IMG/VR virus record: IMGVR_UViG_3300018080_000191
Span: 1-61,267 of that record
Strand: one strand, 5' to 3'
From: a virus
Taxonomy: Duplodnaviria > Caudoviricetes
Length of the DNA: 61,267 bases
Both the position numbers and the translations under genes were made by a program. Position 1 is the stretch's first letter. The number at the start of each line of letters is the position of its first letter. The notes beneath the pieces are model-generated. The model worked only from the letters and a program-made list of their open reading frames with translations. It had not been told where the DNA came from and made no database searches. Positions 17,399 through 41,790 of the stretch are shown piece by piece.

Positions 17399-17400
17399 AA

Positions 17401-24600: not shown

Positions 24601-27407
24601 CACTGGTCGTATATCACGGGACAACAGCAGAGGGCTTTACCGAGTTCGCAGCCGGTAGCGATGTTTCAGGGGAGAGCGATGAATATTATCGTACTGGTAG
24701 TGGTGGCGATCCTACAACTTTTCTCGGAAGCCATTTTGCAGACAGCTCCCTGGTCGCGGGGAAGTTTGCACGGGGCCTGTACGGAGAGCGGGAGTTTTCT
24801 GATAAGGGTGGCAGGATTATGCCGGTTTATCTGAAGATGGAGAACCCGCTGAGGGTTGACGAATCAGAGATGTTTGATATGATGTATCGAGAGTCATATA
24901 ATGCGCCCATTATCGAGAGTATCCTAGAGGGGGAAGCGTATGACGAAGATGTTGAGCCAGAGGAGATTTACGAGCGGTATGATACAGATGAGAAATACAG
25001 GAAAGATATAAATAAGCGAGCTCTCGAGGAGGAGAATCGGGCAGAGGAGCCCATATTTGAGCTCGCACAGGAAATGGCAGATACACTCAGGTCGAAACTG
25101 ATAGATGATGGCCATGACGGTATTATCTATGATAATGAAGTTGAGGGTGGGGTGTCGTATGTCGTATTCGAGTCAACACAGGTGAAATCAGCGACAGGGA
25201 ATCGGGGGACGTTTGATCCGAAGAATCCGGATATAACAAAGGCGTTTCGGGAGATCCTGAAGGCCCCGAAAGACGTTGCGAAGCTAGTTAAGAAAGTTAT
25301 TATCAATAAGAGAGGGAAAAAACAGACCGTTTACGTGAAGCCAGTCGGAGCTAAATCGGAGCCCAAAACGAGGCCTGTTAAGACGGAGTTCAAAAAGAAG
25401 TCCAAGAAGGGGAAAGCAATACACTCTCCTGCGTTCAAGGCCTGGTTCGGGGATTGGGAAAAGGGAGAAGGGAGCCGGGTGGTTAAGAAGGACGGAAGCC
25501 CGCAGGAAACCCATCACCTGGAGAGTTATCCGGACGAAAAGGGAGAGCCGATTAAGGTGTATCACGGGACGGAGAAGGGTGGTTTTACTGAATTTGATGA
25601 AAATGCGATAGATCCCGATGCCCTCTATGGAGCCGGATTTTATTTTACTGAGGATGAAAAAATTGCAGAAGAGTATGCTGGGGGTGGCTTGTATGATGGC
25701 GAGTATACGGTTGTAAAAAGCGATGGCATGAATCATGTGCTATCGTTTGAAGATGAGGACGATCTCGACGATTATACTTCGCAGATGCCAGATGACGAGT
25801 ATAATGCTGCAAAGCAGTACGAGAAAGACGGAAAGTATTTTCTGGAATATAGTGCTGGTCCCGAGAGCGAGGTTTACGAGGTTTATCTTAATATCAGAAA
25901 GCCATTTGATATTGATAATGGTATCATACCGTTTGAGAAATTGAGAGATTTTGTTGAAAAGACAGGTTTGCTGAAGCAGGAAAAGAAAAAGAGTGCCATG
26001 GGGCAGTTGGATGATCCCGATAAACAGGTTGACTATAAATACGAGCATGCGAGTTGGTTGCTCGGTGGTGATGTAGACATAGTAAATGCATTGCTGAAGT
26101 CTATTGGTCATGATGGTCTTACCCATATGGGTGGCAGGAGAGTGGGTACTCGCGATCATCGCGTCTGGATAGCCTTTAAGCCAAACCAGATAAAAGCCAC
26201 AACCGCAGAAGAGTTTGATCCCGGCAGCAATAACATCTATAAGGCAGTGGAGCAGCTCAGGAGCCTTCTGGAAATTGACCTCTCTGGGCTGGGGGAGCGA
26301 TATAGTCATGACTTTAAGAGGTTAGGGACTGAGTTCGGGGACGTGCTCAGGAAGGGGATAAGCTATGCTGATTTGAGGAAGCGCGTTAAAGCCACTGAAA
26401 CCAGCCCAACCGAGGCCCAAAAGCGGGCCGGAAACTATAAAAAGGCGAAGATCCCCTGGAATGGTCTGACTATTTCAATCGAAAACCCGAAGGGTTCCTA
26501 TCGCTCGGGTGTTGATAGGAGCGGGCAGGAGTGGAAATCAAAACTGCATCATGATTATGGCTATATAAACCGGACCGAGGGAGGGGACGGAGATCATGTT
26601 GATGTATTCATCGGCAAGGATGTTGATAGCGATAAAGTTTTCGTCATTAACCAGGTGGATCCGGAGACTGGCCGATTCGATGAGCACAAGGTCATGATCG
26701 GGTTTATGAGTGAGGACGATGCGAGATCTGGATATTTGGCAAACTATGAGGATGGCTGGAATGGAATCCGTGATATTGTTACCCTCTCTTTGGACCAGTT
26801 TAAGAAGTGGTTGAATTTTGGAAATACAAAGGAGTCGTTGATAAGAGAGGCCATTGCAAAGCTTAATACTGTTATTAAGGCAGCAAAAGATAAATCGCAT
26901 CTTACGCCGACCAAAGTTACCAGGAAAGATGGGGTAATTACTACGGTTTACAAGAATCTCAACAAAAAGGTAGAGATAGCAAATTTTGTACGTGATGCAA
27001 TAAAAAATCCACACGGGTATCCTCATACTTTTGAATATGGAGAGGTTGACAAAAAGGAGAATGAGAGGTATAAGAAAATCGGCTTTGACCTGGAGGGGTA
27101 TATACACGTATTAGATAGGTCGGGTATCAGGCATATACATAAAAGGCATGGTGTTGGAAATGAAACGGACCAGAAACTTTCTCCGGTTAAAACCAAACAT
27201 ATCAGGATGATTCCCGATATAGTGAAAAATCCGGACCGCGTTGAATATGCTGGTACTGATGATACTATGGGGCATGATGTTTTACGATATATTCGTAGAA
27301 TAAACGGGGACGTAGTTTATGTTGAAGAAATAAGGATTGGGAAGAAAAGGGTGTTGGCAACGAAGAGTATGAGAATAGAAAAGAGGAGACGCTCTGATGT
27401 CAAATGA
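21648..27407 (+). CDS. 1919-aa polyvalent protein: C39-like, zincin, JAB/RadC, zincin, 2x ART-PolyVal-like, inorganic PPase, PBECR-like RNase
   Basis: HELGH at 22215; HNHPSG..PS.AD at 23226; HERGH at 24180; FKKWFG..VYHGT at ~24552-25240 and FKAWFG..VYHGT..GFYFT at ~25434-26240; PTEAQKRAGNY...IENPKG...DGDHVDVF at ~26400-26820; IRHIHKRHG...IPDIVKNPD...YVEEI at ~26970-27385. Confidence 0.88.
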   Translation: MKSDLAEFKSFIGRDFSEIKYHLHTQGYEFAWGSTYSINDVRKAIMDRQPVFVQLSGHTGLVVGENPDSLVVHDGRKILEIPDSRLMKSWTGNAIIVQESVNETENNGNPLVLFTPERDNWPAEWELQKLATNRILRTLQLDEPFLPPHPIIVSYIKPTQNEISKGIKAMLLGAEVNIYDPSDPLTEFLHELGHLYWYTRLTKEEKQEWIDYHNTLSKKNASAIFAGKAGMQTVEEAFATIYMWYLKSKVIHEGYGRILRFQEPKGLGLLENVVERVRYENQAVDKYRENEQLLAEWVEAEPRVMRLAGGSRIIKARFGSKPAEKIPFPRVIKHTINEREDGRVFITVNEGLLKGKELVVKDGFIELGYEPLLKAGPGKKDTTKLVRKVITNKKGHRQTVWVRPGEKEKKRKPSSGGGLKEKLLASTINEDYKKEWEENNRLTLLGQKVTNANDLAYLARIYRNPQYETFRIFMLNDKDEVVAQTGISLRLPGAATPFVEPECPPRSWMYYKSMMKNSGATKYYLLHNHPSGRTTPSMADEVATRAFINQIPGFKAHIVINHDEYTKIQAFPDSSQLDIEKSHYSPQGDDKYHQKGEVHPLVGVKILDPDQLVDLAKHAEFNSKRYISLISTDVYGKVSGIMQVPKNYFRGFADKGYDSIRDFARTVGSMRIFMIGGGEYGKWEKNYDWSTVYRNAIKRGYLTDAVTGDGKSLSERVAYIRDIRPDPGYLMGVKFSEAKPTVHEAVRKARDFILKAKDISKLVKKVIINKKGKQQTVYVKPSSGEYKKKPWELTKEEFIKNTPEGFNYSNLIKHEADRHTKPPLITVGDKFFKLTPIEREHVIIHERGHELSDKMLKDGSAFKLADSGAFGPKYKDGTINGINGQFTPGENVAEAYAMLISNYRWLKEKYPIVYKKIGEKAMSYGLDIPFAVQKELGIIKVDKNQSKKKKKVKILPQKVRENIVEKAEFKKWFGNSKVVDDKGKPLVVYHGTTAEGFTEFAAGSDVSGESDEYYRTGSGGDPTTFLGSHFADSSLVAGKFARGLYGEREFSDKGGRIMPVYLKMENPLRVDESEMFDMMYRESYNAPIIESILEGEAYDEDVEPEEIYERYDTDEKYRKDINKRALEEENRAEEPIFELAQEMADTLRSKLIDDGHDGIIYDNEVEGGVSYVVFESTQVKSATGNRGTFDPKNPDITKAFREILKAPKDVAKLVKKVIINKRGKKQTVYVKPVGAKSEPKTRPVKTEFKKKSKKGKAIHSPAFKAWFGDWEKGEGSRVVKKDGSPQETHHLESYPDEKGEPIKVYHGTEKGGFTEFDENAIDPDALYGAGFYFTEDEKIAEEYAGGGLYDGEYTVVKSDGMNHVLSFEDEDDLDDYTSQMPDDEYNAAKQYEKDGKYFLEYSAGPESEVYEVYLNIRKPFDIDNGIIPFEKLRDFVEKTGLLKQEKKKSAMGQLDDPDKQVDYKYEHASWLLGGDVDIVNALLKSIGHDGLTHMGGRRVGTRDHRVWIAFKPNQIKATTAEEFDPGSNNIYKAVEQLRSLLEIDLSGLGERYSHDFKRLGTEFGDVLRKGISYADLRKRVKATETSPTEAQKRAGNYKKAKIPWNGLTISIENPKGSYRSGVDRSGQEWKSKLHHDYGYINRTEGGDGDHVDVFIGKDVDSDKVFVINQVDPETGRFDEHKVMIGFMSEDDARSGYLANYEDGWNGIRDIVTLSLDQFKKWLNFGNTKESLIREAIAKLNTVIKAAKDKSHLTPTKVTRKDGVITTVYKNLNKKVEIANFVRDAIKNPHGYPHTFEYGEVDKKENERYKKIGFDLEGYIHVLDRSGIRHIHKRHGVGNETDQKLSPVKTKHIRMIPDIVKNPDRVEYAGTDDTMGHDVLRYIRRINGDVVYVEEIRIGKKRVLATKSMRIEKRRRSDVK

Positions 27408-27809: not shown

Positions 27810-27844
27810 GTTTCGAAATGGGTATTTATATAGGGGATAAAATC

Positions 27845-30800
27845 ATGAAATTAGCGGAACTACTCAATAAAGCTCGAAAAAATACGTTACGCAAAGGGAA
27901 ACCTCCCGGGAAGCTTGATACGTCTAAACTGGTCAGGAAACAGATCATTGACAAAACAGGGCGTAGAACGACCAAGTGGGTCCGTGTCGTAAAAGAGGAA
28001 AAGAAGTCTATCTGGGATATTATTTCCGGTTTTTTTAAGAATCGGGATCCAATACGTGTAGTGCATGAAGAATATGACAAGCACAGAATAAAAGATAGGT
28101 TTGGGATAAACATGAAGTCCTGGACAGAACATTTTGTCGAATATTTCAAGAATAAGGCGAAGTGGGATAAGCTGTTCGGTAAAACCAAAACTACTACCGG
28201 TGGTGGTGGCGGAAAAACCGGTGGTGGCGGTGGCAAAACTGGCGGTGGTGGGGAGAAGGCAACCCCAACGCTTAATCGCAATGTTATGAAGTTTCTCTAT
28301 GAAACTTATGGAAATTTAAGGGAGGCAAAAGATGGAAAAGATCAACCTGGTGCTGGACGAGAGGTACTTTCCGAGGCTGGCGAGGATGAACGCGGAAAGG
28401 CTCAGGCAAAAGTTAGTGTCGCTGTGCCAGATGCACAACCTTCCGATCACGGAAGCCAATCTACGGTCAGTGGCAGCGGATCTGGAATCGGATCTGGCAA
28501 CAAGTCTTGGAAGCAAGGATTGAAAGAAATTAAGGATATTCGGGCCCAATGCCTGGAGATTCTTAAAAAGTCTGATGAGGAAATAACTTACGATGATTTA
28601 CAGATTTTGCGACAATATGAGGGCATTGGCGGAGTTGAGAGCGAGGGTCGTGGGATATTAGATCAGTATTACACTCCCCACAAAGTTATTAGCAAGATGT
28701 GGGATTTGGTAGCCAAGTATCCCCAACGCAGGCAATCTGGGAAGTGGAACTCTCGCGTCCTGGAGCCTGCAGCAGGAACAGGGCGGTTCGCGGATGGTAT
28801 AAGCGGGGATGTAAATTTTGACATGATAGAGCCGGATCCGATTGCAGCTCGGATCAACAAGTTGTTGCATCCGGATGCAAACGTTATTGAGGGTGAATTT
28901 CAATCACTGTTTTTTAAAGAGGGCCGTCTCCATCAGAAAAAATATACGGGCAAAAAGTATGATGTCGTTATCGGTAATCCGCCGTATAGGCCCTATGAGG
29001 GTAAATGGAAAGGTATGGGTGAGGGTAAAGGCCATACCCAGATGCACGAATATTTCATTGATCGGGGCCTGGATACCCTGATAGCAGGTGGTATCCTGGC
29101 CATGATAGTGCCATCAGGTTTCCTCAGAAGTGCGAACAGTAAAGTAAAAGAGGAGATCGCCAAGAAGGGTCGGTTGCTTGAGGCGTATAGGCTCCCGAAC
29201 GGTACATTTAACACAACGGCGGTGGGGACCGATATCCTGATTATCCGAAAAGAAGAAGGCGGGAGCACCGAGCACTTTTTTGATGACAATTACTTTAATG
29301 ACAATCCCACACATATCCTGGGAGAGGAGTCTACGAGGACGGGCAAGTTTGGTCCCGAAAGGTTTGTATCTCTGAGGACCGGCCAAACGTTTGATAGCAC
29401 TATTGACATGATTAACGTAAATGCTGTTGAGCGTGTTGGCATGGGTGAGAAAACGCTATCTGAAGAGGCAAAGGAAAAAATATCTCTGGCATTGATGGGG
29501 AATAAAAACGCCGAAAAGGAGATACATGAAGAGCACAAGGACAACTTCAAAGAAGCCCACAAGGGTGAGAGCGTGGAACTCTTGGAGTCGCTCCTGGGAG
29601 CCGAGAAGGCGAACGAGGCCAAGGACCAGGCCAGGGTAGAAGCCCTCCAAGAGATGGTTGATCAAAGGAAAAAGACAAAATATAATGATGTTGGCACCTG
29701 GAATCTGAAGAAGTTTCACAGGGAATTGAGCGAAAGTATAAAAACTGGTGGTGTTCACGAAAGCGACCTGGAGCAGGCCAAAAAGAACCTGACCGAGATG
29801 GAAGTGGAACTGCAAAAAAGGCAGGAGTGGACGAAAGAGGATGAGAAAAAGGCGAAGCAGCGCGAGAAGATTAAAAAGCAGGAAGCAACGGCACCGGAAG
29901 CCACAGAGAAGAAGAAAAAGGAGTTCTATACTCTAGATGAGTTTATAAAACAATATGGCGGAAAGTTTGACGAGCTTGACCTGAAGATATGGCGACATAC
30001 CAAAAATGATGGCTCGATAGATATATCGCAGACCCCCTGGAACAAGGACAGTAAGGGCCGTATCTGCTATTTGGGTGGAAAGTATTATCACAATACGAAC
30101 TATGCCAGCGGGAATGTAATTGAAAAGCTTAAAAAACTTGAAGAGGAAAAAGACGAGATCATAAAGAAGTTTGGCAAGGAGCAATATACGAGACAGAAGG
30201 AACTTCTGGAGAGCGTCAAACCCGAATATAAAACCACGAAAGAAATTGTGATGTCCCCATTGTCCAGTTTTGTGAGGGATTTTAGATTCGAATGGGATAA
30301 AGACGAAAACGATAGTCAAAAGTCCCTGATTCAGTTATTCTGGGATTGGTGTGGTGTCGAAAGTAATTGGAGGGGAACCAACTTTAACGGTGGTGCCACT
30401 CCTCACGATCTTACTGGCGGGATAGATTGGGATGATATTGTTGAATATGTCAACAGGGTACCCAGGAAAAAGTCGCAGCATGAAACGAAGGAATTTGTTG
30501 GACAAATTAAAGCCAAAAGGCGTGAAAATGCGGAGAGGCTGTTTAATCGCTTTATCCAGGAGGGGCTCTCGGGTAAGTATAAAGAGGATTTTGAGAATAG
30601 ATTCAACGAGCGTTTCAACAGCAATGTAAATGCCGATTTTGCGAATATCCCGGTATTTGTGGATGGGTTATCAAAAACCTTTAAGGGAGACAAGCTACAG
30701 GTAAAGGACGTTCAGCTCGAGGGTGCAGCGTATTTGACCAATAAGGGGGCCGGACTATTGGCGTATGAGGTTGGGGTTGGAAAGACTTTAACGGGTATTC

Positions 30801-33238
30801 TGGCCACTGTGCAGCAGTTACAGTTGGGGCGTGCTAAAAAACCGGTTATTGTCGTTCCAAAGGCAACTTATAAGGGATGGTTAAGCGAAATCCGGGACCT
30901 GTTCCCAAACCTGAAGATTAACGAGCTAGACAATTTACGTGGGTACAATAAAGATAATATGCCGGATATTAAAGATGGAACGCTATCGATATGTACCTAC
31001 CAGGCTCTTGACAACCTGACATTTAAAGATGATACGCTTTTTGAGTTGTCAGAGGATCTTGAGGATACTATGGCCAATCCGTTTGGTGTTGACATAAAGG
31101 CCGGTAGTGCAGAAGAGAAGCGCAGAGAAAAGGAACGGGAGCGTATAAAGACAAAATTAGGCGAGGGAGCGAGCGTTGTAAGTGACGTTATTCATGTTGA
31201 GGATCTGGGATTTGACCATATTACGGTTGATGAAGCTCATAACTTTAAGAACGTGTTCTCGAAAGCTGAGGCCGAAAAGAATCAGGATGGCTCGAAGGCT
31301 GCAAACGAATATTCTACAGTAACGGGATCGTCCAGTGTGCGCGGGTCTAAGATGTTTATGTTATCGCAGTATATACAGCGCAAGAATGAGGGGCGAAATG
31401 TGTTTATGTTGACAGCAACACCGTTTACGAACTCCCCCTTGGAGATTTATAACATGCTATCATTCATGGCGCGGGATAAGCTGAAAGAGATGGGAATTTA
31501 CAACATCAATCAGTTTCTCAGTGCTTATGCCAAGGTCCAGGACGAATGGGCAGTGTCTCATACGGGACAAATTACGAAAAAGGGCGTAATCAAGGAGTTC
31601 CATAATGTTGGTGCTCTTCAAAAGCTGATAAAGCAGTATATCGATTTTAAGGGAATCGATGACATTAACGAAAGAGCTGGTTACGAAGCCATAAAGAGAC
31701 CGAAGAAATTTCAGCATCTTGTCGAGCTCCCGAATAATCCCGAGTTGGAAAGCATACTAGAGGGTGAACAGAGAAGAATGACGGATATCGAAGAAATACG
31801 AAAGGGCGGGGTGCTGAAGGGGATTAACACGTCTAGGACGGCAACGCTCTCTCCGGCCCTAGTGGCAAGCAAGCTCGATGATTTTCATAGTGCTGATGTT
31901 CGGACAAAAAAATGGGATTTGGTTGAGGACAGCCCAAAGCTGAAATTTAGTTTTGGCCTCACCGCCGAAATGTACAAAAAGAGGCCGGATTTGGGGCATG
32001 TAATATACATTCCCCAGGGGGTGGAGAAATTCAAGGAGATGACCGAGCACCTGGTTAAGCAGGGCGTTCCCAAGGATGCAATTGCAACTATTCATGGCGG
32101 TATGAGTGGCGATAAGGGAGCTGAGCGAATTGAGGCGATTAAGAAAGAATTTAACGATCCTGACGGGAAAATTAAGGTTTTAATCGGCAGCTCCACTATT
32201 CTGGAGGGTATCAATCTGAACGGCAATACGGCATTTTTGCATAATACAATGTTGGGGTGGAACGCCAGCGAAACGGTGCAGCTCGAGGGCCGGTCATGGA
32301 GACAGGGAAATAGACAGGAGAATGTTCACATAATTACTCCCGTTATTCATGATTCGATTGATTCTGTGATGTATCAAAAACATGATGAAAAAAAATCGCG
32401 GTTTGCGGAAATCCATAACTTCAAGGGCGATAAAATGGATGCTGGTGAGATTGACTACAAGGACGTAAAGTTTGATCTTATTAAGGATCCGGAGAAAAAA
32501 GCTCAATTTAGGATCGAGCTCGAAACCGAGAGGTTGAACGATCAAAAGCTGGAGAAGAGAATTTTGAAAGACGGGATTGGCAATATTGCCAAGCAGCGTG
32601 ATGAAAGTATAAATGAGATACCGAGACTGGAAGAGGATATAAAAGAGCATGATCAGAAGATGGAGGAGCTCAAAGGGGCTATTGATAAGGCGCGAGCTGA
32701 AATTAAGGAGATGCCAAACGAAACTGATGAGCAGCTTAGTGCGATTGAGCGAAAAAAGAGGTTTGAGGTTGACTATGTAAAGGATGACTACGATCACGAG
32801 AAGCGATATCGGGATAATAAAAAGAAAAAGATTGAAACCCTGAAGGTGCAGATTGAGGTTTTTAATAAAAAAATGAACGAGTTGGGTGGCGAGGATATCA
32901 ATGCCACCATTGCGAATCTTGACCAGGAGATAGACGAGATCAATAATACGATTAAGGGATTCCAGGAGAAAAAGAGCCAATATGTCGAGGAGGCAAAAAG
33001 GGATATAGAGCGCAAGAAAAAAGTGGTCCCTGGCGTAAATGAACAAATAACCAAATATGCTGAAATGCTATTGGAAAACGTGGAGTACAGCAAGGAGTAT
33101 CAGGAATTACTCGAGGAGTCTAAGAAAAAGTATAAGGTTGGCAAAAAGGTTGTAAAGGCACATGTTCTGCCAAAAGCCAGAAAAGAGCCCCGGACGTATA
33201 TTTTTGGGGGTGTAACATATAGAATGATAGGAGAGTAA
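27845..33238 (+). CDS. DarB-like protein: N6-adenine methyltransferase plus SNF2/SF2 helicase
   Basis: MTase QYYTP, LEPAAGTG, VIGNPPY, AYRLP..TF; helicase EVGVGKT, DEAHNFKN, LTATP, EGINL, QLEGRSWRQGN; C-terminal coiled coil. Confidence 0.9.
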   Translation: MKLAELLNKARKNTLRKGKPPGKLDTSKLVRKQIIDKTGRRTTKWVRVVKEEKKSIWDIISGFFKNRDPIRVVHEEYDKHRIKDRFGINMKSWTEHFVEYFKNKAKWDKLFGKTKTTTGGGGGKTGGGGGKTGGGGEKATPTLNRNVMKFLYETYGNLREAKDGKDQPGAGREVLSEAGEDERGKAQAKVSVAVPDAQPSDHGSQSTVSGSGSGIGSGNKSWKQGLKEIKDIRAQCLEILKKSDEEITYDDLQILRQYEGIGGVESEGRGILDQYYTPHKVISKMWDLVAKYPQRRQSGKWNSRVLEPAAGTGRFADGISGDVNFDMIEPDPIAARINKLLHPDANVIEGEFQSLFFKEGRLHQKKYTGKKYDVVIGNPPYRPYEGKWKGMGEGKGHTQMHEYFIDRGLDTLIAGGILAMIVPSGFLRSANSKVKEEIAKKGRLLEAYRLPNGTFNTTAVGTDILIIRKEEGGSTEHFFDDNYFNDNPTHILGEESTRTGKFGPERFVSLRTGQTFDSTIDMINVNAVERVGMGEKTLSEEAKEKISLALMGNKNAEKEIHEEHKDNFKEAHKGESVELLESLLGAEKANEAKDQARVEALQEMVDQRKKTKYNDVGTWNLKKFHRELSESIKTGGVHESDLEQAKKNLTEMEVELQKRQEWTKEDEKKAKQREKIKKQEATAPEATEKKKKEFYTLDEFIKQYGGKFDELDLKIWRHTKNDGSIDISQTPWNKDSKGRICYLGGKYYHNTNYASGNVIEKLKKLEEEKDEIIKKFGKEQYTRQKELLESVKPEYKTTKEIVMSPLSSFVRDFRFEWDKDENDSQKSLIQLFWDWCGVESNWRGTNFNGGATPHDLTGGIDWDDIVEYVNRVPRKKSQHETKEFVGQIKAKRRENAERLFNRFIQEGLSGKYKEDFENRFNERFNSNVNADFANIPVFVDGLSKTFKGDKLQVKDVQLEGAAYLTNKGAGLLAYEVGVGKTLTGILATVQQLQLGRAKKPVIVVPKATYKGWLSEIRDLFPNLKINELDNLRGYNKDNMPDIKDGTLSICTYQALDNLTFKDDTLFELSEDLEDTMANPFGVDIKAGSAEEKRREKERERIKTKLGEGASVVSDVIHVEDLGFDHITVDEAHNFKNVFSKAEAEKNQDGSKAANEYSTVTGSSSVRGSKMFMLSQYIQRKNEGRNVFMLTATPFTNSPLEIYNMLSFMARDKLKEMGIYNINQFLSAYAKVQDEWAVSHTGQITKKGVIKEFHNVGALQKLIKQYIDFKGIDDINERAGYEAIKRPKKFQHLVELPNNPELESILEGEQRRMTDIEEIRKGGVLKGINTSRTATLSPALVASKLDDFHSADVRTKKWDLVEDSPKLKFSFGLTAEMYKKRPDLGHVIYIPQGVEKFKEMTEHLVKQGVPKDAIATIHGGMSGDKGAERIEAIKKEFNDPDGKIKVLIGSSTILEGINLNGNTAFLHNTMLGWNASETVQLEGRSWRQGNRQENVHIITPVIHDSIDSVMYQKHDEKKSRFAEIHNFKGDKMDAGEIDYKDVKFDLIKDPEKKAQFRIELETERLNDQKLEKRILKDGIGNIAKQRDESINEIPRLEEDIKEHDQKMEELKGAIDKARAEIKEMPNETDEQLSAIERKKRFEVDYVKDDYDHEKRYRDNKKKKIETLKVQIEVFNKKMNELGGEDINATIANLDQEIDEINNTIKGFQEKKSQYVEEAKRDIERKKKVVPGVNEQITKYAEMLLENVEYSKEYQELLEESKKKYKVGKKVVKAHVLPKARKEPRTYIFGGVTYRMIGE
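28196..28258 (+). repeat. 21-nt tandem repeat encoding TGGGGGK linker (~3 copies)
   Basis: TGGGGGK TGGGGGK TGGGGEK. Confidence 0.75.
28332..28523 (+). CDS. candidate overprinted 63-aa gene inside the DarB-like linker
   Basis: GGGAGG SD 7 nt before ATG; helical-looking product; the host frame here is a low-complexity linker. Confidence 0.4.
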   Translation: MEKINLVLDERYFPRLARMNAERLRQKLVSLCQMHNLPITEANLRSVAADLESDLATSLGSKD

Positions 33239-33243
33239 TAGCG

Positions 33244-35379
33244 ATGAAGGCTGAAACTGAGAATCTGAAGGCTTTATTGAAAGCCGGCGGGCATAAGTAT
33301 ATCAAGAGATTACCGCACCCGAGCCCGAAGCCTGGAAGGAAGTACATCTATTTCTACAACCAGGAGCAGATTAAGAAGTATAAGGAAACAGGCGAGATCC
33401 CGGGAGACGAAAAGGGTGAAAAAAAGAGCAGCGTACTTGGTACGATAATGAAATTTTTTGGGTTCAAGCGCGAGACTGAAGCGGATGCAAAGGTAAGGGC
33501 GGTAAATGCAGAGTTGAGTGATGCTGGCCTTCATGTTGGATATACTACAACGCTGGAGCACATGGCCGAGTATTTTTCCAATAAGGCCAAGTGGGATGCC
33601 AGGTTCTCGAAAAAAAGCGGTGGTGCTAAGTCCGGAGCAGGATCGGGTGAGAAAAAGACTGGTGGCGGAGCCAAACCCGAGAAGAAATGGAATACTAACG
33701 TTATGAGGTTCCTGTACCAAAAATACGGCAGTGGCGGAGGGGCTAGCGATGACCAGGCCAAGAAAGAAAAGGAGTTGCGCGAGCTTGGTATAGCAGAAGA
33801 TGTAATTGAGCAACGAAAAGAAGAGGATGGCGATCTGGATACCCTTTACGATGAGTCAATGGGGGTGGGAGAGGAAAATGCTGATAAAATGAGGGAAGAT
33901 CTGAAAAAGGATATCAATGGCCTGCTCGACAAATATGAATCTGCAGAGGGCAAGGAAAAGGAAAAACTTGCCGGCCAGGTAAAGGAGAAGTTTGGGCAGC
34001 TCTCGAAGGAAGACAAGGAGAAACTGCTCGATGAGCGGAAAAGGAGTGGTGAAAAGGGTAAACCAGAAGAGAAGAAGGGAGATGTTGACGATTCCAATGA
34101 TTTTGGTGTGGATAGACTGAAAGAAAATGAGAAAAAGTTATTGCTTGAGATAACTGGCGATAAGGATGTGAAAAAGGTTCTTGAAAAATGGAAGGCAATT
34201 GACGATGGCATTTTCAATGATAAAGAGTTAGTCGTTTTAAATGGGATAGTTTATCACAAGCTAGACTCAAATAAAAGGCCATTAGCAGGTGCAGTTAATT
34301 ATAAAAAGTTTAAGGAAGAATATCCTCATTTTGTTTCGAATGATATGCTGCATAAAGATTCTTTAATTCACGGTGGGGTATTTGTACTGACCCCAAAAGG
34401 TGAAGATGTGCTAAAAGGCAGAGTCCGGAGATTATTGACTAAGTTTGGCAAGGGGAAAGAGAAGGGCATACCTCAAGACGAGAAGCTTTCCAAGCGTGAA
34501 GAGCAACTCTCCAGGATGGTTGAGAAGCATGAAAAAGGAGTTGATAAGGAGACCCAGAAAAAGACCGAGGAGATCGCCGAAGGGGCGGGAGTTGATACGG
34601 GTAAGGTACCTGATGAGCCAGGCACAGAATACGGTCATCCGTCCATCGAGGGTACCCTGGTCCACGGCGATGCCGATACTGTTTTAAAGAAACGGTCCAA
34701 CCCGAAGAAAGCCCTTGAGCCTGGAGTTGCAGATTTATCAGACCATTTTGGCATACACATGATGAACGAAGCTCTCGAAAAAGATGGAATCTATACCAAC
34801 ACCAAATTTATGATTATTGATGATCCTAAAAACGTTAAAGACATATACGAGAAGAACAGGGAAAAATTTATTGATAGCCGGGTCAAGGATATTAAAAAAT
34901 CCGTAAGTAAGGGAGATGGTGAACCCTTGTCTGATGAAGAGGCCCGAGAATTGGCGATAAAGAATCTTGAAGATGAAATGAATAATGCCAAAAAACTGCC
35001 CTGGCAAAGTGCTGTGCCGAAGGAGAAGGATATCCCCAAGAAGGAGGCGCAGATTATTGGCGGATACAAGACTGCTCAGGCAAAAATGTGGTGCTCTCTC
35101 CTCTCTGATGGGGAAAATCATGCTTTTGTCCAGAATGACTACATTGCAATGTTCAGGAAGCGGTATCCTGGTGCAAGATTTAAAGTAACAAGCAGCAAGG
35201 GGGCCGGGAAAAGTCCTGTTGTTGTCGAGAAAGATGGCAAAATGGTAGGTGTTGTTATGCCTATACTGATGGGATCGAATGCTGGCGAGGCTCGGGATCA
35301 CCTGCTGGAGCAGCAAAAGAAGCGGGGCCTGAAAAAAGCACTTGGCGAACCAATTGAAATATTTGGGATAAGGGTATAG
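33244..35379 (+). CDS. 711-aa putative virion cargo protein; C-terminus possibly beta-clamp-like
   Basis: N-terminal domain shared with neighbours; C-terminal YIAMF...SPVVV...VGVVMPI; tail KALGEPIEIFGIRV. Confidence 0.7.
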   Translation: MKAETENLKALLKAGGHKYIKRLPHPSPKPGRKYIYFYNQEQIKKYKETGEIPGDEKGEKKSSVLGTIMKFFGFKRETEADAKVRAVNAELSDAGLHVGYTTTLEHMAEYFSNKAKWDARFSKKSGGAKSGAGSGEKKTGGGAKPEKKWNTNVMRFLYQKYGSGGGASDDQAKKEKELRELGIAEDVIEQRKEEDGDLDTLYDESMGVGEENADKMREDLKKDINGLLDKYESAEGKEKEKLAGQVKEKFGQLSKEDKEKLLDERKRSGEKGKPEEKKGDVDDSNDFGVDRLKENEKKLLLEITGDKDVKKVLEKWKAIDDGIFNDKELVVLNGIVYHKLDSNKRPLAGAVNYKKFKEEYPHFVSNDMLHKDSLIHGGVFVLTPKGEDVLKGRVRRLLTKFGKGKEKGIPQDEKLSKREEQLSRMVEKHEKGVDKETQKKTEEIAEGAGVDTGKVPDEPGTEYGHPSIEGTLVHGDADTVLKKRSNPKKALEPGVADLSDHFGIHMMNEALEKDGIYTNTKFMIIDDPKNVKDIYEKNREKFIDSRVKDIKKSVSKGDGEPLSDEEARELAIKNLEDEMNNAKKLPWQSAVPKEKDIPKKEAQIIGGYKTAQAKMWCSLLSDGENHAFVQNDYIAMFRKRYPGARFKVTSSKGAGKSPVVVEKDGKMVGVVMPILMGSNAGEARDHLLEQQKKRGLKKALGEPIEIFGIRV

Positions 35380-35381
35380 AA

Positions 35382-38300
35382 ATGCAACCGATACTATTTG
35401 AGATCGCAGATTGTGATGACCATATCGGTAAATTAAAAGAACTTCTTAAAGCTGGCGGTAAGAAGGACATCAGCAAGCTCCGGAAGGAAGTCATTACCAA
35501 TAAGCGCGGGAAGAGGCAGACCGTATATAAGAAAATCCATGAAGATGAGAAAAAAAACGTTTTTGACATCATCATGGAATTTTTCGGATTTAAAAAGAAA
35601 AACGAGGTGCTGCAGCAGCTTGATAGCGATTACAAGAAACATGATATCGCAACAAAATTCAATCTGTCACACGATCAGTGGACCAGTCACTATCTGGAGT
35701 ATTTTAAGCACAAAAAGAGATGGGATGCTGCATTTGCCAAAAAAAAGACTACCGAAGGTGGTGGAGAACGCAAAAAGGGTGGTGAAAAGAAAACAGGGGG
35801 TGGCGATGAGAAAAAGAAAGGCATTACCTGGAACAGGGACGTGATGAAGTTTTTGCACGAACTCTACGGGAAAGGGAAGCCGGAGACAGAAAAAGAGGTG
35901 GGGAAATACAAGGACCTGGTTGGTAAGAAATTTAAAATATCTACTACCATGGTCAGCGGTTCGAGCATGAAGCCCGAGAAGATAGATAGCGAGATAGTTG
36001 TTGAAAAGATAGATGACTCAGGGATACATTACCGGGATGCCAAGGATGTTGGAAAACCCGCCCACGAGGGTGGTAGTGGATTTATGACTTTTAATGGTTT
36101 TAACAGGATGGTTGCTGCAGGCGAGATGATGGAGATAAAGCCTGATGTCACCGAAAAAGTTAAGGAGTTGCTAACCACAAAAAAAGAGCGGAAAAGAAAA
36201 CCACTCAGCAGCGGGGAAGGGGAGAAAGAAGAGAGCAAGCCCCGGGGCCCTACCGAGGAAAAGAAGAAATATCTTGATGTTGGCGAAAAGATAGGCGGAG
36301 CCAGGAAAGATATCGCAGCACTGATGAACATGTATAAAACCGAAAAAGATAAGGCTGTATCCATGACAGATCTGGAAGCCATTGAAGAGTCTGGCGAAGC
36401 CGGCTTGCTGATAAATAGAGAACGCCAGTTCGGAGGCAAGAAAGCCATTGTTGATATGATGCGCTCTGTGGGAGCTGATTCTGGGGCTACATATATTGTT
36501 TGGAGACTGGCATCGAGCATCGAAAAAATGCCTGCCGATAACCCAGAGTCCCGGAAAAAATATGTATTGGGAATTGAGCGATTGCTAAAAACAGTTGTGA
36601 ACTGGACTGATGTAAGTGCAGCAAGAGAGGGGTTGAGTATTATACAATCCGAACTTAACGGATATTATTATACAGATAGTGAGCTTGCAACATCGAAGGC
36701 AATAGACGAAAGGACATCAAAAATCAAGTCTGAGATAAATAAGATATGGAATCAAATATATATTCCCAAATATAAAGGTACAGGCGGGGACTGGAGAAGA
36801 AAAGCATCAGATATTTTCTGGAAGGACCCGGATGTTGTTAAGCTAGAAAAGCAAAAAGATGAGCTAAGGAAGGAATTTTTAAAAATAAGAAAAGTGGCGC
36901 AAGAGAGATCGGATAATGACCCCATGTCTCCGGCAAACCTGTATAAGGCACTCGGGAAAAGCTTTACCGAACTTATTGCCCCTCCATGGAGATCGAAGAG
37001 GAGAGATACGCTTATAAATAATGCCTACAAAAATGATGACTGGAAGTGGGCGGGAGGGGCGAAGGAAACCGGCGAAGAGGAAAAGGAGCGCAAAAAGAAG
37101 AGTCGAGAAAGGTTGAAGTGGAGACGTGAGGTTCCCGAGGAAGTTGAACGCGTGTCTCAGGCTGGGACCAAGGATTACGAATCAAAAACGCTTATGAATG
37201 ATTTCGGGCTCAGGGCTGTTGAATACGGCAACTGGATGGATATAGAATCGAGCAAGATCCATACACAGCGAGCTGGCGAAGCCCTGGCGGACCTGGCCTA
37301 CCTTTTTGGTGTGGATAAGAAGCTGATATCCCTGAACGGCAGGCTCGCAATAGCGTTTGGAGCTCGAGGGAAAGGTAAAGCCTCAGCTCATTATGAACCC
37401 GGGAGAAAGGTTATCAACATCACAAAAGAGAGGGGTGGCGGGTCCCTGGCGCACGAATGGGGGCATGCCCTAGACAATATCCTGTCCATAGTGGCTTATA
37501 AAGAAGCCGGCCAGGAGGGGGGCAATATTTCTTTTATGTCCGATTCGGACTATAAGAATAAGTATTCTCATACACTGGGAACGGTTCAAACTGCGTTAGA
37601 CAAGGTTAATGATGCCATACATAAGGGCAGTTTTGTGATGCGGAAAACCATCAATCTGAAGGGAAGCGAAAGATATCAACATAGTACTTTCTGGAAGTAC
37701 GAGGAAAGAACCGCAATAGGGCTTTATGGGGAGCCAAATGAGAAGGGCAGGTTACAAGAAATATGGAAAGAGGTTAAAACCACCAACGATAAATATAAAG
37801 GTGATAACGAAGCCCACAAAAAGCCGGAGTTTTATGATGATCTATTTGCTCATAAAGACCTACAGCATCCAGTAGACAGAGCAAGGATGCGTGAGTTCAT
37901 TGAGGGTGATATTTTATACCGTAGCGATTTTGCAATGAAACACGTTTGGGAACTTGTGCCAGGTGAAGGCATTATTGACTGGAAAACCGTTGATGTCGGT
38001 AAACTCGGGGAATACTTGCAGAAAAAGGCTGATGAATATGTTGATACAAGGAAAAGTCAATATGATGACGATTATTTTAAAAGAAAATATTTAGAAAAGG
38101 ACTGGGATCGTCTTGACAAAAGGGTGGCTTATGAATTCAGGAAAGAGAGTGATGCTGACTATATAATGTCAAAACTTTATCATGATGGAGACAAAAAAGA
38201 GCCGATCACCATTAACATGAAAAGCGTTCGTCCTGTTGGGGGCAAGTCCAACTACTTTTCCACTGCAAGCAAAATGGGGGGGTATTGGAAAAGGCCTCAT

Positions 38301-38612
38301 GAGTTATTTGCCCGCGCATTTGAAAGCTACGTTTACGATAAGCTCAGGGAAAAGAACATGAAGAACAGCTATCTTGTTTCTGGTGTGTCGAAAGAGGCTG
38401 CTGCGAATTGGGGGAAAAAGGCCAAGGAGCTCGAGGGCGAGGGTGGGGTGACAAGCATATACCCCCTGGGAGACGAGAGAGAGCGTATTAACGCTGCTAT
38501 GGATGAACTGGTGGAGGCAATCAAGGAACACGAAGTTTTGGCAAAAGCAATTCAGATCCTGGATGCTCAGCTCCTAAAAGCTCCTATCGAAATTTTTGGG
38601 ATTAAGGTGTAA
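35382..38612 (+). CDS. 1076-aa LPD1-type polyvalent protein with zincin motif
   Basis: DVGEKIGGARKD, VEYGNW, LAIAFGARG, AHYEP, SLAHEWGHALD, YWKRPHELFARAFESYV, YP.G.ER. Confidence 0.85.
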   Translation: MQPILFEIADCDDHIGKLKELLKAGGKKDISKLRKEVITNKRGKRQTVYKKIHEDEKKNVFDIIMEFFGFKKKNEVLQQLDSDYKKHDIATKFNLSHDQWTSHYLEYFKHKKRWDAAFAKKKTTEGGGERKKGGEKKTGGGDEKKKGITWNRDVMKFLHELYGKGKPETEKEVGKYKDLVGKKFKISTTMVSGSSMKPEKIDSEIVVEKIDDSGIHYRDAKDVGKPAHEGGSGFMTFNGFNRMVAAGEMMEIKPDVTEKVKELLTTKKERKRKPLSSGEGEKEESKPRGPTEEKKKYLDVGEKIGGARKDIAALMNMYKTEKDKAVSMTDLEAIEESGEAGLLINRERQFGGKKAIVDMMRSVGADSGATYIVWRLASSIEKMPADNPESRKKYVLGIERLLKTVVNWTDVSAAREGLSIIQSELNGYYYTDSELATSKAIDERTSKIKSEINKIWNQIYIPKYKGTGGDWRRKASDIFWKDPDVVKLEKQKDELRKEFLKIRKVAQERSDNDPMSPANLYKALGKSFTELIAPPWRSKRRDTLINNAYKNDDWKWAGGAKETGEEEKERKKKSRERLKWRREVPEEVERVSQAGTKDYESKTLMNDFGLRAVEYGNWMDIESSKIHTQRAGEALADLAYLFGVDKKLISLNGRLAIAFGARGKGKASAHYEPGRKVINITKERGGGSLAHEWGHALDNILSIVAYKEAGQEGGNISFMSDSDYKNKYSHTLGTVQTALDKVNDAIHKGSFVMRKTINLKGSERYQHSTFWKYEERTAIGLYGEPNEKGRLQEIWKEVKTTNDKYKGDNEAHKKPEFYDDLFAHKDLQHPVDRARMREFIEGDILYRSDFAMKHVWELVPGEGIIDWKTVDVGKLGEYLQKKADEYVDTRKSQYDDDYFKRKYLEKDWDRLDKRVAYEFRKESDADYIMSKLYHDGDKKEPITINMKSVRPVGGKSNYFSTASKMGGYWKRPHELFARAFESYVYDKLREKNMKNSYLVSGVSKEAAANWGKKAKELEGEGGVTSIYPLGDERERINAAMDELVEAIKEHEVLAKAIQILDAQLLKAPIEIFGIKV

Positions 38613-38615: not shown

Positions 38616-39758
38616 ATGGATGGAATATCAATGCTTAAATCAAAACTTGAGGAAACTGCTCACAAATCCCCGCCGAAGGAATATCGAGAAGAGGGGGCAG
38701 CAGATCGGGGGGATTATGCAGACCCAAAACGATATAAATACCCTCTCCATACGGAAAAGAATGTTCGGGCTGCAATCAGCTATTTTGCTCAACCCGATAA
38801 TCACGGGATGTATTCTCCAGAAGAGCGAAAAAGTATAGCCAGGAAAATTTTTAACGCAGCCCGGAAGTACAATATTGAAGTAAGTGATGACTGGAAGGAA
38901 AAGTTTAACCTATCCAAGGCGATGGGCCAGGATGGGGAACGAGAGCAAACAGGTGGTACAGGTTTTTGTGTATGCCCGAAGTGTGGACATAGAGCAAAGC
39001 ATGACAGGGGAAAGCCCTGCAATACATTAACCTGCCCCGAGTGTGGTGTTGCACTGACGGGGGAGGGGACCGCTGGAAGTAAACTCAAAAAGAGTAAGGT
39101 AATTAAGACGCGTGTAATTCTTACCCGAGATGGTAAAATGCTTATGAAAAGCCGGACCGGAAAAAAGGAAAATCCTGCAATAACAGTAATAACAAAAATG
39201 GTAAATGAATATGAGATAAACGGTGGAGACCCGGCTGTAGCAATTGAAAGTATTCGGAACGTCGTGAATAGCCATAAGGATCGGCTCCCGAACCTATCAA
39301 AAGTCCTGGAGGATGAATTTGGAAGTAGAACGCTGAAGGCGAAAGATACGTCCAGGTTAATTAAAAAGCAGATTATCAACAAGCAGGGCAAGAAGCAAAC
39401 AGTATACGTGAGGCCCGGGGAAGATCCCCAAAAACAGGTCCAAGGGCAGCAACAACCCGGGGTGCAGCAGGCCAGAAAAGATTCTGATACCGCGAAAGAG
39501 GAGAAGAAAAAGTCAAAACGGGACATGTTTAAAAACGCTATTAAAAATTTGATTGAGACGATGACGCAGGTATTTTCGGGCCAAGGTGGGACAGAGCAGG
39601 CAACGGGCACGGCACAGCAAGCTGGCGAGGATGCGTCAAGGGTTGGCATTGCACAGAGGAAGGAAAAAACTGCGAAAAAACGAGAGAAGCAAGCAGAAAA
39701 GAAAACAGAGAAAAAGTCTGGAAAAGATTATTATACAGGAACCCTGTTTGAATTATGA
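38616..39758 (+). CDS. 380-aa multidomain protein: DUF6582-like, Zn ribbon, basic tag
   Basis: KYPLHTEKNVRAAISYF; CVCPKCG..H..G.PC...CPECG; KDTSRLIKKQIINKQGKKQTVYVRP. Confidence 0.75.
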   Translation: MDGISMLKSKLEETAHKSPPKEYREEGAADRGDYADPKRYKYPLHTEKNVRAAISYFAQPDNHGMYSPEERKSIARKIFNAARKYNIEVSDDWKEKFNLSKAMGQDGEREQTGGTGFCVCPKCGHRAKHDRGKPCNTLTCPECGVALTGEGTAGSKLKKSKVIKTRVILTRDGKMLMKSRTGKKENPAITVITKMVNEYEINGGDPAVAIESIRNVVNSHKDRLPNLSKVLEDEFGSRTLKAKDTSRLIKKQIINKQGKKQTVYVRPGEDPQKQVQGQQQPGVQQARKDSDTAKEEKKKSKRDMFKNAIKNLIETMTQVFSGQGGTEQATGTAQQAGEDASRVGIAQRKEKTAKKREKQAEKKTEKKSGKDYYTGTLFEL

Positions 39759-40216: not shown

Positions 40217-41083
40217 ATGAGAATCGTAATCGGTAATTTTCAACTTCAAAAGGCTGATAGGCCTGAGGATGATAAATATGTATACGTCCGGATGATTGCC
40301 AATCGGCTTGATATTGATAAAGAAAACCAGCAGATTTTACCCCAGGCATTTAGTAAGGCAACCATTGAGAATTTTCTGAAAAACGGGATTATCGACTGGC
40401 ATCATCAGAGTGTCCTAGGGAAAACCAGCGAGGAAAGAGCTAAGGCTATCCTGGGGGAACCTTACGATTTCAAGTGGGAAGATGGTTTGCCGGTTGTATA
40501 TGCCAGGTTAACCAAGGGCCATCCTATAGTACGAGACTCTATTCTTCCCCATCTTGATGCTGAGCAGCGGGTATTCAGCGCGAGTGTTGGTGGGTCTATC
40601 AAAAAGATCAAAAAGTTTTTTGATAAGGCGATCAATACGGCGAAAGAGGAAATTTTGGCTATCGATTGGAACCATTTGGCGATAGCTGCCACACCGTATG
40701 TTATTTCTGCTGGGTCCGCGGTGAGTATGGTTAAGGCCCAAAACGATCTGTGCGTTGAGTTTAGCGATGTGTCTGCATTTGAGAGCGAAATAGATATTAT
40801 CACGAAAGAGGGGGAATTGCGTAAGGCCCTCCAGATGGGAGCTGGAACAGATGTATCGAGTTTAGCCGGGGCTGACGCTCTCAGGATGCAAAGCCTGGAG
40901 GGGGATCGGCAATATAACCGATTACGAGATGATGTTATGTTTGCCATTATGGATGGAACAATTACGCCATCTCGGGACAGCGTAATGATGTTTTTAAAGG
41001 CCAAAGGTGTTCCCGAGAGAGAATCAAGGGATTTCCTGTCTCAATTTTTAAAAAGCATACGAAACGCCATTCAAACCATTTAA
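40217..41083 (+). CDS. prohead (capsid maturation) protease
   Basis: DKENQQI, IDWHH, FSASVGG, LAIAATP motifs; precedes scaffold and capsid. Confidence 0.82.
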   Translation: MRIVIGNFQLQKADRPEDDKYVYVRMIANRLDIDKENQQILPQAFSKATIENFLKNGIIDWHHQSVLGKTSEERAKAILGEPYDFKWEDGLPVVYARLTKGHPIVRDSILPHLDAEQRVFSASVGGSIKKIKKFFDKAINTAKEEILAIDWNHLAIAATPYVISAGSAVSMVKAQNDLCVEFSDVSAFESEIDIITKEGELRKALQMGAGTDVSSLAGADALRMQSLEGDRQYNRLRDDVMFAIMDGTITPSRDSVMMFLKAKGVPERESRDFLSQFLKSIRNAIQTI

Positions 41084-41097: not shown

Positions 41098-41790
41098 ATG
41101 AAAGGCGATGAAATTAAAGTTCTCTCGGATTTACTTAATCTCGAAAAGCTGTCAAAGGCTGAAGAGGTTAATGATGACGAAGAAAGAGATGATGAGGACG
41201 AGTATAACGAGGAATACATGAAGAAATACATGAAGAAGTTCATGAAGAGCAACCGGGACTATGTTGCCAAGTGTTCTGAGGATCTCGGATTCGTCAAAAA
41301 GGCTATCGATACCGAAGTGGAAAATATCGAAGGTATTGAAGAGGCCGATGCAACACTGGTCGATGGGACAAGTTTTATCAATGCCCTGTCTGACGGTATG
41401 GGTGTACTCGCTAAGGCTGTGGCCGGGATTATCGAAGAGATGGCAGAACTGAGAAGTGAGCTTGAGTATCAAACCGAACTGTCAAAGGCTTCTGGCGGTG
41501 TTCTTGTGAAAGCTGCTGAGGCACTGGATGAGCTCTCATCTGCACCTCTCGAAAGGCGTGGTCACGATTTTGCACCGCAAGACAGGAGTGCTGATGGCGG
41601 TGGTAACGGGTCTGCACTTCGAAAAGCAAAAAACCTTAGCGTAGATGAAATCAAGAGAATGGCCTTAAGGGCTGCCCAGGAAGGTGACAACAGAGCTGCT
41701 TCGCTGGTTACAGATCTGGACTGCTGCAATGGCAATCTCGGGATGTTGAGAAAGGCCTCAATAAATCTGATTGAAGAATTAGCAAGCTAA
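41098..41790 (+). CDS. capsid scaffold protein
   Basis: Acidic helical protein between protease and capsid; seven hydrophobic-x-KA motifs. Confidence 0.7.
   Translation: MKGDEIKVLSDLLNLEKLSKAEEVNDDEERDDEDEYNEEYMKKYMKKFMKSNRDYVAKCSEDLGFVKKAIDTEVENIEGIEEADATLVDGTSFINALSDGMGVLAKAVAGIIEEMAELRSELEYQTELSKASGGVLVKAAEALDELSSAPLERRGHDFAPQDRSADGGGNGSALRKAKNLSVDEIKRMALRAAQEGDNRAASLVTDLDCCNGNLGMLRKASINLIEELAS

Follow-up and report, generated by a model that had tools for sequence, protein, structure and literature searches.

A shared N-terminal module of giant phage proteins as a candidate handle for capsid loading and processing of injected effectors

The complete IMG/VR record IMGVR_UViG_3300018080_000191 (linear, 61,267 bases, CheckV completeness 46%; the whole of this stretch is called here the window) encodes three giant proteins, P0001, P0002 and P0003, which begin with related sequences and continue with very different ones. 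A preliminary description of this DNA had attributed to them a common N-terminal domain for docking, oligomerisation or translocation, comparable to a secretion-system trafficking domain. This locus raises the question of why a phage would place the same domain in front of unrelated proteins. On balance, we favor the answer that this common N-terminus serves as a handle by which injected effectors are loaded into the capsid and processed. The three genes are arranged as follows:

27818..33238, + strand: P0001, 1806 amino acids (aa), N-terminal module followed by a DarB-like adenine methylase and SNF2 helicase
33244..35379, + strand: P0002, 711 aa, N-terminal module followed by about 540 aa without a Pfam, NCBIfam or PHROG family
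35382..38612, + strand: P0003, 1076 aa, N-terminal module followed by an HExxH zincin region and LPD1

Pairwise BLASTP of the whole proteins confirmed the common domain. The N-termini of P0001 and P0003 are 42% identical over 162 aa (E 1.7e-23), those of P0002 and P0003 31% over 178 aa (E 2.4e-13), and those of P0001 and P0002 45% over 69 aa (E 9e-9). Elsewhere in the proteins, the same comparison gave no similarity below E 0.05, and only about 165 N-terminal residues are common to the three proteins. The three-way alignment of the module has 36 invariant columns and a mean column identity of 60%. The remaining parts, i.e., the cargoes, differ as had been claimed. P0001 contains an Eco57I-type methyltransferase (Pfam Eco57I, E 1.3e-11) together with SNF2-rel_dom (E 1.5e-12) and Helicase_C (E 2e-7), and it matches the PHROGs family phrog_10089 'DarB-like antirestriction' (E 1.4e-75); the fusion of methylase and SWI2/SNF2 helicase of the P1 DarB family is therefore present in P0001 according to both Pfam and PHROGs. 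P0002 has no Pfam family. P0003 carries LPD1 (Pfam, E 3.3e-23), and its HExxH region is CLCA_X-like below the cut-off of that family (NF041907, E 9.5e-26, 90.8 bits versus a cut-off of 260).

The three copies of the module can be divided into the same parts:

27845..28318, + strand: copy 1 (P0001), profile E 6.6e-47, with h-x-K-A (h, hydrophobic residue) at 27863-27874, hairpin at 27905-28000, helical bundle at 28001-28183, basic loop at 28184-28276 and closing helix at 28277-28318
33244..33735, + strand: copy 2 (P0002), profile E 1.9e-37, with h-x-K-A at 33274-33285, K-Y-I-K-R-type hairpin at 33286-33423, bundle at 33424-33612, loop at 33613-33693 and closing helix at 33694-33735
35382..35453, + strand: copy 3 (P0003), leader of 24 aa that ends with L-L-K-A (35442-35453), candidate capsid-targeting leader and protease site
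35454..35549, + strand: copy 3, basic beta-hairpin, net charge +6, model strands 33-39 and 45-51 with a predicted local distance difference test (pLDDT) score of 88-93
35550..35741, + strand: copy 3, helical bundle, model helices 60-119, pLDDT 91-97, the part seen in the preliminary description
35742..35834, + strand: copy 3, Lys/Gly-rich loop, net charge +5, modeled with low confidence (about residues 120-151) and probably disordered
35835..35876, + strand: copy 3, closing helix W-N-x-x-V-M-K-F-L-x-x-x-Y-G, model helix 152-163, pLDDT 95

According to an AlphaFold2 model of P0003 residues 1-173 (alignment of 42 sequences, mean pLDDT 78.8), the module is a unit of about 150 residues composed of a leader ending in h-x-K-A, a basic beta-hairpin, a helical bundle, a Lys/Gly-rich loop and a closing helix. 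The leader forms a helix at residues 12-24, with low confidence. The peptides quoted in the preliminary description are indeed found in the three proteins (28001-28024 and 28274-28312 in P0001; 33421-33444 and 33688-33729 in P0002; 35550-35573 and 35829-35870 in P0003), but the size of about 100 aa assigned to the domain was too small, because the leader, the h-x-K-A motif and the beta-hairpin lie upstream of them. Similarly, the Gly/Lys stretch had been taken for a linker; it is modeled as an internal loop of the domain, since the conserved final helix that follows it packs back. Two interchangeable types of hairpin sequence occur across the module family, K-D-x-S-K-L-x-K-K-x-I-x-N-K-x-G-x-x-Q-T-V-Y-V in P0001 and P0003, and K-Y-I-K-R-x-P-x-x-x-G-K-G-Y-x-Y-F-Y in P0002.

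Concerning the start of copy 1, the longest open reading frame (ORF) of P0001 begins at 27818, and an AGGGG box precedes the ATG at 27845 by 8 bases. This ATG is likely the true start, judging from the sequence, and it would leave P0001 a leader of 10 residues, the length of the capsid targeting sequence (CTS) of phage T4.

The preliminary description called the domain uncharacterised, and it held that a match of the module profile to a known domain of unrelated function would speak against its proposal. No Pfam, NCBIfam or PHROG family that covers the module was found in profile searches, and none of the three collections gave a credible match: Pfam, searched at E<=5, returned only chance-level rows (best 0.0027, 18 bits versus a cut-off of 42), NCBIfam at E<=1 gave nothing credible, and PHROGs at E<=0.1 gave only chance-level matches (best E 0.022). 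The model of the module had no match at E<=1e-3 in the PDB and BFVD with Foldseek, and its best match with VIA-align among 48,161 chains (7ygv_A, Z 4.1, root-mean-square deviation 3.3, 60 aligned) is at the background level for helical models. ESM Atlas had no usable match for the module. In its description of the parts of DarB-like proteins, Iyer et al. (2017; PMC5512222) place LPD36, which consists of four helices and has a GxGU motif, N-terminal to the methylase. We rejected LPD36 as the identity of the module, since LPD36 adjoins the methylase and has the GxGU motif, i.e., it corresponds to a different region of P0001. As regards the GxGU motif of LPD36, a G-I-G-G sequence is located just upstream of the P0001 methyltransferase, as observed by eye only. 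The module may still be the same as an LPD that never reached Pfam; of these domains, LPD36 was compared, by its description.

The module belongs to a large family. When 1.84 billion representatives were searched exhaustively with a profile, 173 clusters matched at E<=1e-3, of which 92 also matched at E<=1e-10 and 9 even at E<=1e-30; the counts of position and cargo given below rest on 150 listed of these 173 clusters and on 147 external proteins. Among the matches listed, 133 external proteins have a module match of at least 90 profile positions, which makes 137 modules, since four proteins contain two full modules. The module starts within the first 60 residues in 96 cases, at residues 61-150 in 13 and beyond residue 150 in 28. 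Less sensitive approaches gave little: a word-indexed protein search found just two relatives among 309 candidates, and a tblastn search of 50,697 phage records with the P0003 module had no match at E<=1e-3, the Leptospira phage LE1 being found with a more central family member.

Pfam scans of the cargoes of 145 listed members (45 + 47 + 53) identified LPD1 in 27 of them, SNF2-related domains in 19, Eco57I-type methylases in 18, DUF5661 in 9, ART-PolyVal in 6 and LAGLIDADG_3 in 4. DUF6908, DUF6496 and LPD3 were found in three members each, InPase in two, ParB domains in one or two, and RadC, PBECR1, SAM lyase and glutamine synthetase C in one each. Among the first 45 members scanned, 16 had no Pfam family at all. 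These counts characterize the module as a recurrent companion of the polyvalent or early-effector repertoire that Iyer et al. (2017; PMC5512222) described. LAGLIDADG or homing-endonuclease domains are located inside the helicase region of P0014, P0041 and two other DarB-like members, which suggests, from the sequences, that they are inteins.

The genomic context of the module genes is that of a phage head. Every long ORF of the window is on the + strand, and the GC skew is strong. Matches to Pfam and PHROGs identify the small and large terminase (2904-5032), the portal (5251-6912), the tail sheath (49032-50792) and baseplate J (58146-59555). Because terminase, portal, major head protein, tail sheath and baseplate J were identified, the window phage is, by its gene content, myovirus-type. 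The three module genes are located within the head module, between the portal and a group of protease, scaffold and capsid genes. The features of this region other than P0001-P0003 are:

5251..6912, + strand: portal protein, start of the head module (Pfam, PHROGs)
21648..27407, + strand: P0004, polyvalent protein of 1919 aa with RadC, two ART-PolyVal, InPase and PBECR3
22755-22952, 23901-24041, 25242-25403 and, weaker, 26853-27077, + strand: cassettes of site and hairpin in P0004, each between Pfam domains
38616..39758, + strand: P0007, 380 aa, with DUF6582, a four-Cys zinc ribbon, a hairpin cassette (39330-39428) and a Lys/Gln-rich tail
40217..41083, + strand: prohead protease candidate, gp21-like fold, 6 h-x-K-A motifs
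41098..41790, + strand: acidic scaffold candidate, net charge -20, 7 h-x-K-A motifs
41813..43306, + strand: major capsid protein (MCP; phrog_752, E 1.2e-72), with L-L-K-A at aa 24-27 (41882-41893), a candidate maturation site

The same arrangement is conserved in relatives. In an IMG/VR contig of 71 kb, the order of the three module genes is unchanged, and homologues of P0007, the protease, the scaffold and the capsid protein come after them. A wider scan gave 41 viral loci, which together with locus L001 make 42. In 36 of them, a homologue of the window portal, capsid, protease or sheath lies within 10 kb on the same strand, and the remaining 6 have P0004-like or P0001-like neighbors. A search with a 5-row alignment also found one contig of a Spirochaetota metagenome-assembled genome (MAG; L043) with a syntenic set of P0004-, P0001- and P0002-like genes. 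A cultured phage is included: in Leptospira biflexa phage LE1 (NC_048892), the module is at the start of gp15, a 'putative methylase' of 1971 aa that lies between the portal gp10 and the major head protein gp24, and a second copy is found at 28656-29183. The phages LE3 and LE4, whose proteomics has been published (PMC6078989), are unrelated.

The ORF at 40217-41083 has an invariant serine (Ser123, in A-S-V-G-G) and a near-invariant histidine (His62) among 11 homologues. The top Foldseek match of its model is the T4 prohead protease gp21 (5jbl; E 5.5e-4, prob 1.00, template modeling score 0.55 on target), and herpesvirus proteases come next. The module after the motif has a net charge of +14 to +21 and an isoelectric point (pI) of about 10, and the scaffold candidate encoded next to the protease has a net charge of -20. 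A prediction of the complex between scaffold and module scored 0.00 (mark 0.32) and gave no answer, so it carries no weight either way.

The h-x-K-A motif at the end of the leader recurs in the head proteins. This motif was noticed by reading the sequences first and tested afterwards. Counted as [LIVMF]-x-K-A, it occurs 40 times in the nine proteins of the head set (portal, P0004, P0001-P0003, P0007, protease, scaffold and capsid), and shuffles of each protein gave an expectation of 12.7 (standard deviation 3.6, maximum 25 in 1000 shuffles), i.e., a threefold enrichment. The other 55 ORFs have 16 versus 14.2 expected. Individually, the scaffold has 7 h-x-K-A motifs versus 0.49 expected, and the protease 6 versus 0.65. 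Of 10 distinct MCP homologues, 9 retain the capsid motif where they align with aa 24-27, and the tenth has F-M-K-S. Throughout the family, h-x-K-[AS] precedes 140 of 157 hairpin-bearing domains, where the background leads one to expect about 0.2 per stretch examined; several of the 17 hairpin domains that lack it are truncated gene starts or near-variants. The flavor of the motif changes with the lineage, being L-x-K-A in the clade of the window and M-x-K-A in that of L005-L014, each in the scaffold as well as in the modules. The clade of L015 has mostly K-S in a protease-scaffold fusion, and both K-S and K-A before hairpins. In LE1, the capsid protein and four sites of the scaffold have F-x-K-S, and gp15 has F-x-K-G at either end.

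Given the enrichment in head proteins, the conservation, the lineage flavor and the gp21-like protease, h-x-K-[A/S] is most simply read as the predicted cleavage signal of the prohead protease of the window. In T4, cleavage follows hydrophobic-x-Glu (L/I-x-E), and the cut precedes a small residue. By analogy, the protease of the window would probably cut after Lys; the alternative is a cut after Ala/Ser.

The motif is also frequent at the opposite end of these proteins:

33149..33235, + strand: C-terminal h-x-K-A sites of P0001 (33149-33160 and 33167-33178) and tail
35329..35376, + strand: C-terminal h-x-K-A of P0002 (35329-35340), then a 12-aa tail common with P0003
38538..38609, + strand: C-terminal h-x-K-A sites of P0003 (38538-38549 and 38571-38582), then the shared tail of 9 aa

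Among the 112 members of at least 600 aa, 71 have the motif in the last 40 residues, versus 13 of 112 mid-protein control windows; P0001, P0002 and P0003 each have it. These C-terminal motifs are commonly trailed by basic/hydrophobic tails of 5-30 residues (71/112). The tails of P0002 (35341-35376) and P0003 (38583-38609), which directly follow h-x-K-A, are near-identical (9 of 12 residues, 75%, BLASTP E 0.069), and similar tails are present in the L001 orthologues. We considered that the C-terminal tails could be additional copies of the hairpin and rejected it, since a profile of the hairpin only matches 0 of 112 tails.

The hairpin is also found without the rest of the module, in three strong copies and one weak copy in P0004, and in one copy in P0007. 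In P0004, the cassettes at about aa 372, 753, 1203 and 1742 divide five units: an N-terminal HExxH region, RadC, a second HExxH region with ART, ART with InPase, and PBECR3. This layout looks like that of a polyprotein for cutting into five effectors. P0007 is encoded just upstream of the protease; elsewhere, a protein of about 420 aa with an N-terminal hairpin is encoded downstream of the DarB-like gene.

Homology, family, head-module context, motif statistics and protease fold are what the analysis shows; from them we infer packaging, cleavage and the bond that is cut, as well as attachment to the scaffold or to DNA, in the following way. The handle would mark otherwise unrelated effectors for incorporation into the procapsid and for trimming by the gp21-like prohead protease. 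The short leader and h-x-K-[A/S] would act as the T4 CTS does, with the protease cutting there, and the basic hairpin, the bundle and the Lys-rich loop would stay on the mature cargo as its new N-terminus. This basic remainder could hold the cargo to the acidic scaffold first and to the packaged DNA next. At infection, the cargo would exit with the DNA and act early, as an antirestriction methylase-helicase, peptidase, ART, RNase or other effector. P0004 and P0007 would be internal head cargo alongside P0001-P0003. In the fused relatives and in P0004, where the cassette of site and hairpin lies between effector domains, a polyprotein would be cut in such a way that each unit starts with a cassette. 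We also entertain, tentatively and as a rather doubtful proposal, a general 'cut here, hold here' grammar, in which a site plus a basic hairpin starts every deliverable unit, be it a gene of its own, as in the window, or part of a polyprotein, and the bundle and Lys-rich loop, as a fold not known before, hand the cargo from scaffold to DNA, with which it would be expelled. If this grammar were true, the module would be a portable folded handle to load arbitrary proteins into phage heads, and the protease of the clade would be Lys-specific.

Several points weigh against the reading of the module as a capsid-loading and processing handle. The motif statistics are exploratory, because the motif was seen before it was tested, and the shuffles retain the composition and not the helical periodicity of the proteins; moreover, the non-head ORF 52162-53727 also has 5 motifs. 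The conservation of the motif before the hairpin could be structural instead of proteolytic. Since 28 of the 137 modules are internal, a strictly N-terminal leader of the T4 type is not the sole loading determinant, and since the sites in the capsid and scaffold proteins have no hairpin after them, the hairpin is dispensable for recognition by the protease. The absence of the hairpin from all 112 tails leaves an arrangement of site and hairpin at both ends unsupported. The protease model has a middling confidence (pLDDT 69), the roles of the hairpin and the helical bundle are ones that we infer, and, without an informative match in the fold searches given above, the structure of the module offers no functional clue and the novelty of its fold is likewise not shown.

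The strong basicity of the module would also suit a nucleic-acid tether that acts after injection, which would keep the effector attached to the entering phage DNA and thereby make it work in cis, packaging being decided elsewhere. The net charge of +14 to +21 and the pI of about 10 fit this explanation, the commonest cargoes (methylase-helicase) act on DNA, and DarB protects phage DNA in cis, as Iyer et al. (PMC5512222) indicate where they discuss it. A tether overlaps, and is compatible, with a head-cargo handle. However, the module is equally common on LPD1/zincin proteins (27/145) and is also present on ARTs, which do not evidently require DNA; Foldseek (PDB/BFVD) and VIA-align gave no match to a known DNA-binding fold; and the tether leaves unexplained the conserved h-x-K-[AS] and the enrichment of the motif in scaffold, protease and capsid. 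We regard the tether as unlikely. That the domain serves oligomerisation, bringing P0001-P0003, P0004 and P0007 into one hetero-complex such as an ejection conduit or an inner-body-like assembly, is quite unlikely. It is true that several module proteins occur per phage (three in the window, three in L001, two in LE1, and at least two in 9 further viral loci, including L003, L004, L007, L012, L013, L014 and L032, by the module profile), and that the module genes are adjacent and probably co-expressed; yet many phages have a single module protein, and the two modules in one chain of the fused forms fit the tagging of units better than a stoichiometric assembly.

The motif distribution also bears on a regulatory or chaperone-like domain that keeps the effectors inactive in the producer cell, with h-x-K-A as a structural helix cap. 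Injected ARTs, nucleases and peptidases could damage the producer, which makes a pro-domain plausible, and the motif does belong to the conserved module, but a single domain would need to inhibit enzymes of unrelated folds, and the motif is enriched separately in the scaffold, the protease and the capsid N-terminus, all of which lack the module. We consider such an inhibitory role very unlikely. Finally, a docking or trafficking role, as the preliminary description suggested, is the best reading, whereas its likeness to a cellular secretion or conjugation system is not supported. A common N-terminal domain with variable C-terminal cargo recalls the polymorphic toxins, which Iyer et al. (PMC5512222) mention in this connection. 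Nevertheless, the window belongs to a phage, the 49 of its ORFs that were scanned gave no match to a family of secretion or conjugation, 36 of the 42 related loci are in phage head or tail modules, and the other 6 and the one bacterial-genome locus have homologues of the window polyvalent genes instead. A trafficking signal for a cellular system is thus extremely unlikely.

Other observations concern the surroundings of these genes and the identity of the phage. The region of the protease at about aa 198-228, after L-R-K-A, resembles that of the capsid protein at about aa 24-55, after L-L-K-A; the protease profile matches capsid ORFs in several loci, and phrog_752 weakly matches the protease (E 0.03). 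The C-terminal part of the protease and the N-terminal region of the capsid protein may, by this resemblance, share a docking segment. Between the ORF 27527-27757 and P0001 lies an inverted repeat (27791-27810) whose 9-bp arms match perfectly around a loop of 2 bases; it may be a terminator or a regulatory hairpin ahead of the cargo genes. Between the portal and the polyvalent proteins there is an accessory block (7936-20864) that encodes a metallophosphoesterase, an RNA ligase (12557-13468), a RlaP-type nucleotidyltransferase (13629-14420), a radical-SAM-like ORF, a 676-aa protein with a part similar to 5'-3' deoxyribonucleotidases, DUF5131 and ASCH, an unusual location for a gene set resembling RNA repair. 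The window capsid protein is less than 60% identical to those of all 404 matching phage records, the best being the Leptospira LE1-like phages with 29%. The sole bacterial-genome match of the module (L043, the Spirochaetota MAG contig) and the sole cultured-phage match (L052, LE1) are both spirochaetal, and the capsid protein likewise has its best matches among Leptospira phages; a spirochaete may therefore be the host of the window phage.

How the proteins that are loaded into the head and injected are chosen is known in detail for a few model phages only. The clade studied here, which includes the cultured phage LE1, seems to use one folded module of 150 residues on many anti-defence enzymes. 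If this is true, the module provides a sequence signature to predict the injected proteins of such phages, a candidate new specificity, with Lys at the cut site, for head proteases of the gp21/assemblin type, and a possible handle to load foreign proteins into capsids. The catalogue of polyvalent-protein parts would also gain a domain family that is absent from Pfam.

Among known systems, the closest functional analogue would be the capsid targeting sequence of the T4 internal proteins and of P1 DarB. In its passages on T4, PMC9024508 describes the CTS as a tag of about 10 residues that ends with L/I-x-E, and names IPIII as a protein that has one. The T4 tag is common to the N-termini of unrelated cargoes (IPI-III and Alt) and is removed by gp21. 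In the window, too, unrelated cargoes have a common N-terminal tag, the tag ends at a motif, here a predicted cleavage site, that recurs many times in the scaffold candidate and is present at the capsid N-terminus, and a protease candidate of the gp21 fold is encoded; the cargo module is basic and the scaffold acidic. The differences are that the motif is L/I-x-E in T4 and h-x-K-[A/S] here, so that the system would work like that of T4 without belonging to the same sequence family, that behind the window motif there is a folded, conserved module of about 140 aa, which the cargo would keep, and that the window cassette is also found inside polyproteins. Similarity to T4 in sequence was neither looked for nor noticed. 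Regarding P1, 30 N-terminal residues of DarB suffice for loading a reporter into capsids (Gonzales et al., 2022; PMC9024508), and the sections of that paper on the Dar proteins state that no N-terminal consensus was found and that P1 has no separate scaffold. P0001 has the same dyad of methylase and SNF2 helicase as DarB, but three or more cargoes of the window share an obvious module, which is no sequence member of the P1 signals either, and the window phage has a scaffold candidate.

The window also agrees with the polyvalent proteins described by Iyer et al. (2017; PMC5512222), which that work, in the parts concerned with delivery, predicts to be injected with the DNA, packaged and proteolytically processed; the anchors to the head that it names are MuF and portal fusions, and the enzymes that it considers likely to do the processing are zincin peptidases. 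The same repertoire is present here (LPD1, ART-PolyVal, InPase, PBECR3, RadC and methyltransferase-helicase) in the same position within the portal-terminase head module, and P0004 combines multiple disparate domains in one polypeptide in this portal-terminase context. In the window, unlike in that proposal, the motif statistics point to the prohead protease, and no MuF family (Phage_Mu_F / SPP1 gp7) was found among the 49 ORFs at E<=0.01/0.001. The cleavage codes of giant phages offer another parallel, in which a short motif is likewise common to head proteins, scaffold, protease and packaged enzymes. The prohead protease of the giant phages phiKZ and SPN3US cuts after x-E, with Glu as the P1 residue, whereas Lys (or Ala) is predicted at this position here. 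What is particular to the window system is thus the combination of a large conserved domain, a motif of the Lys type and a cultured relative.

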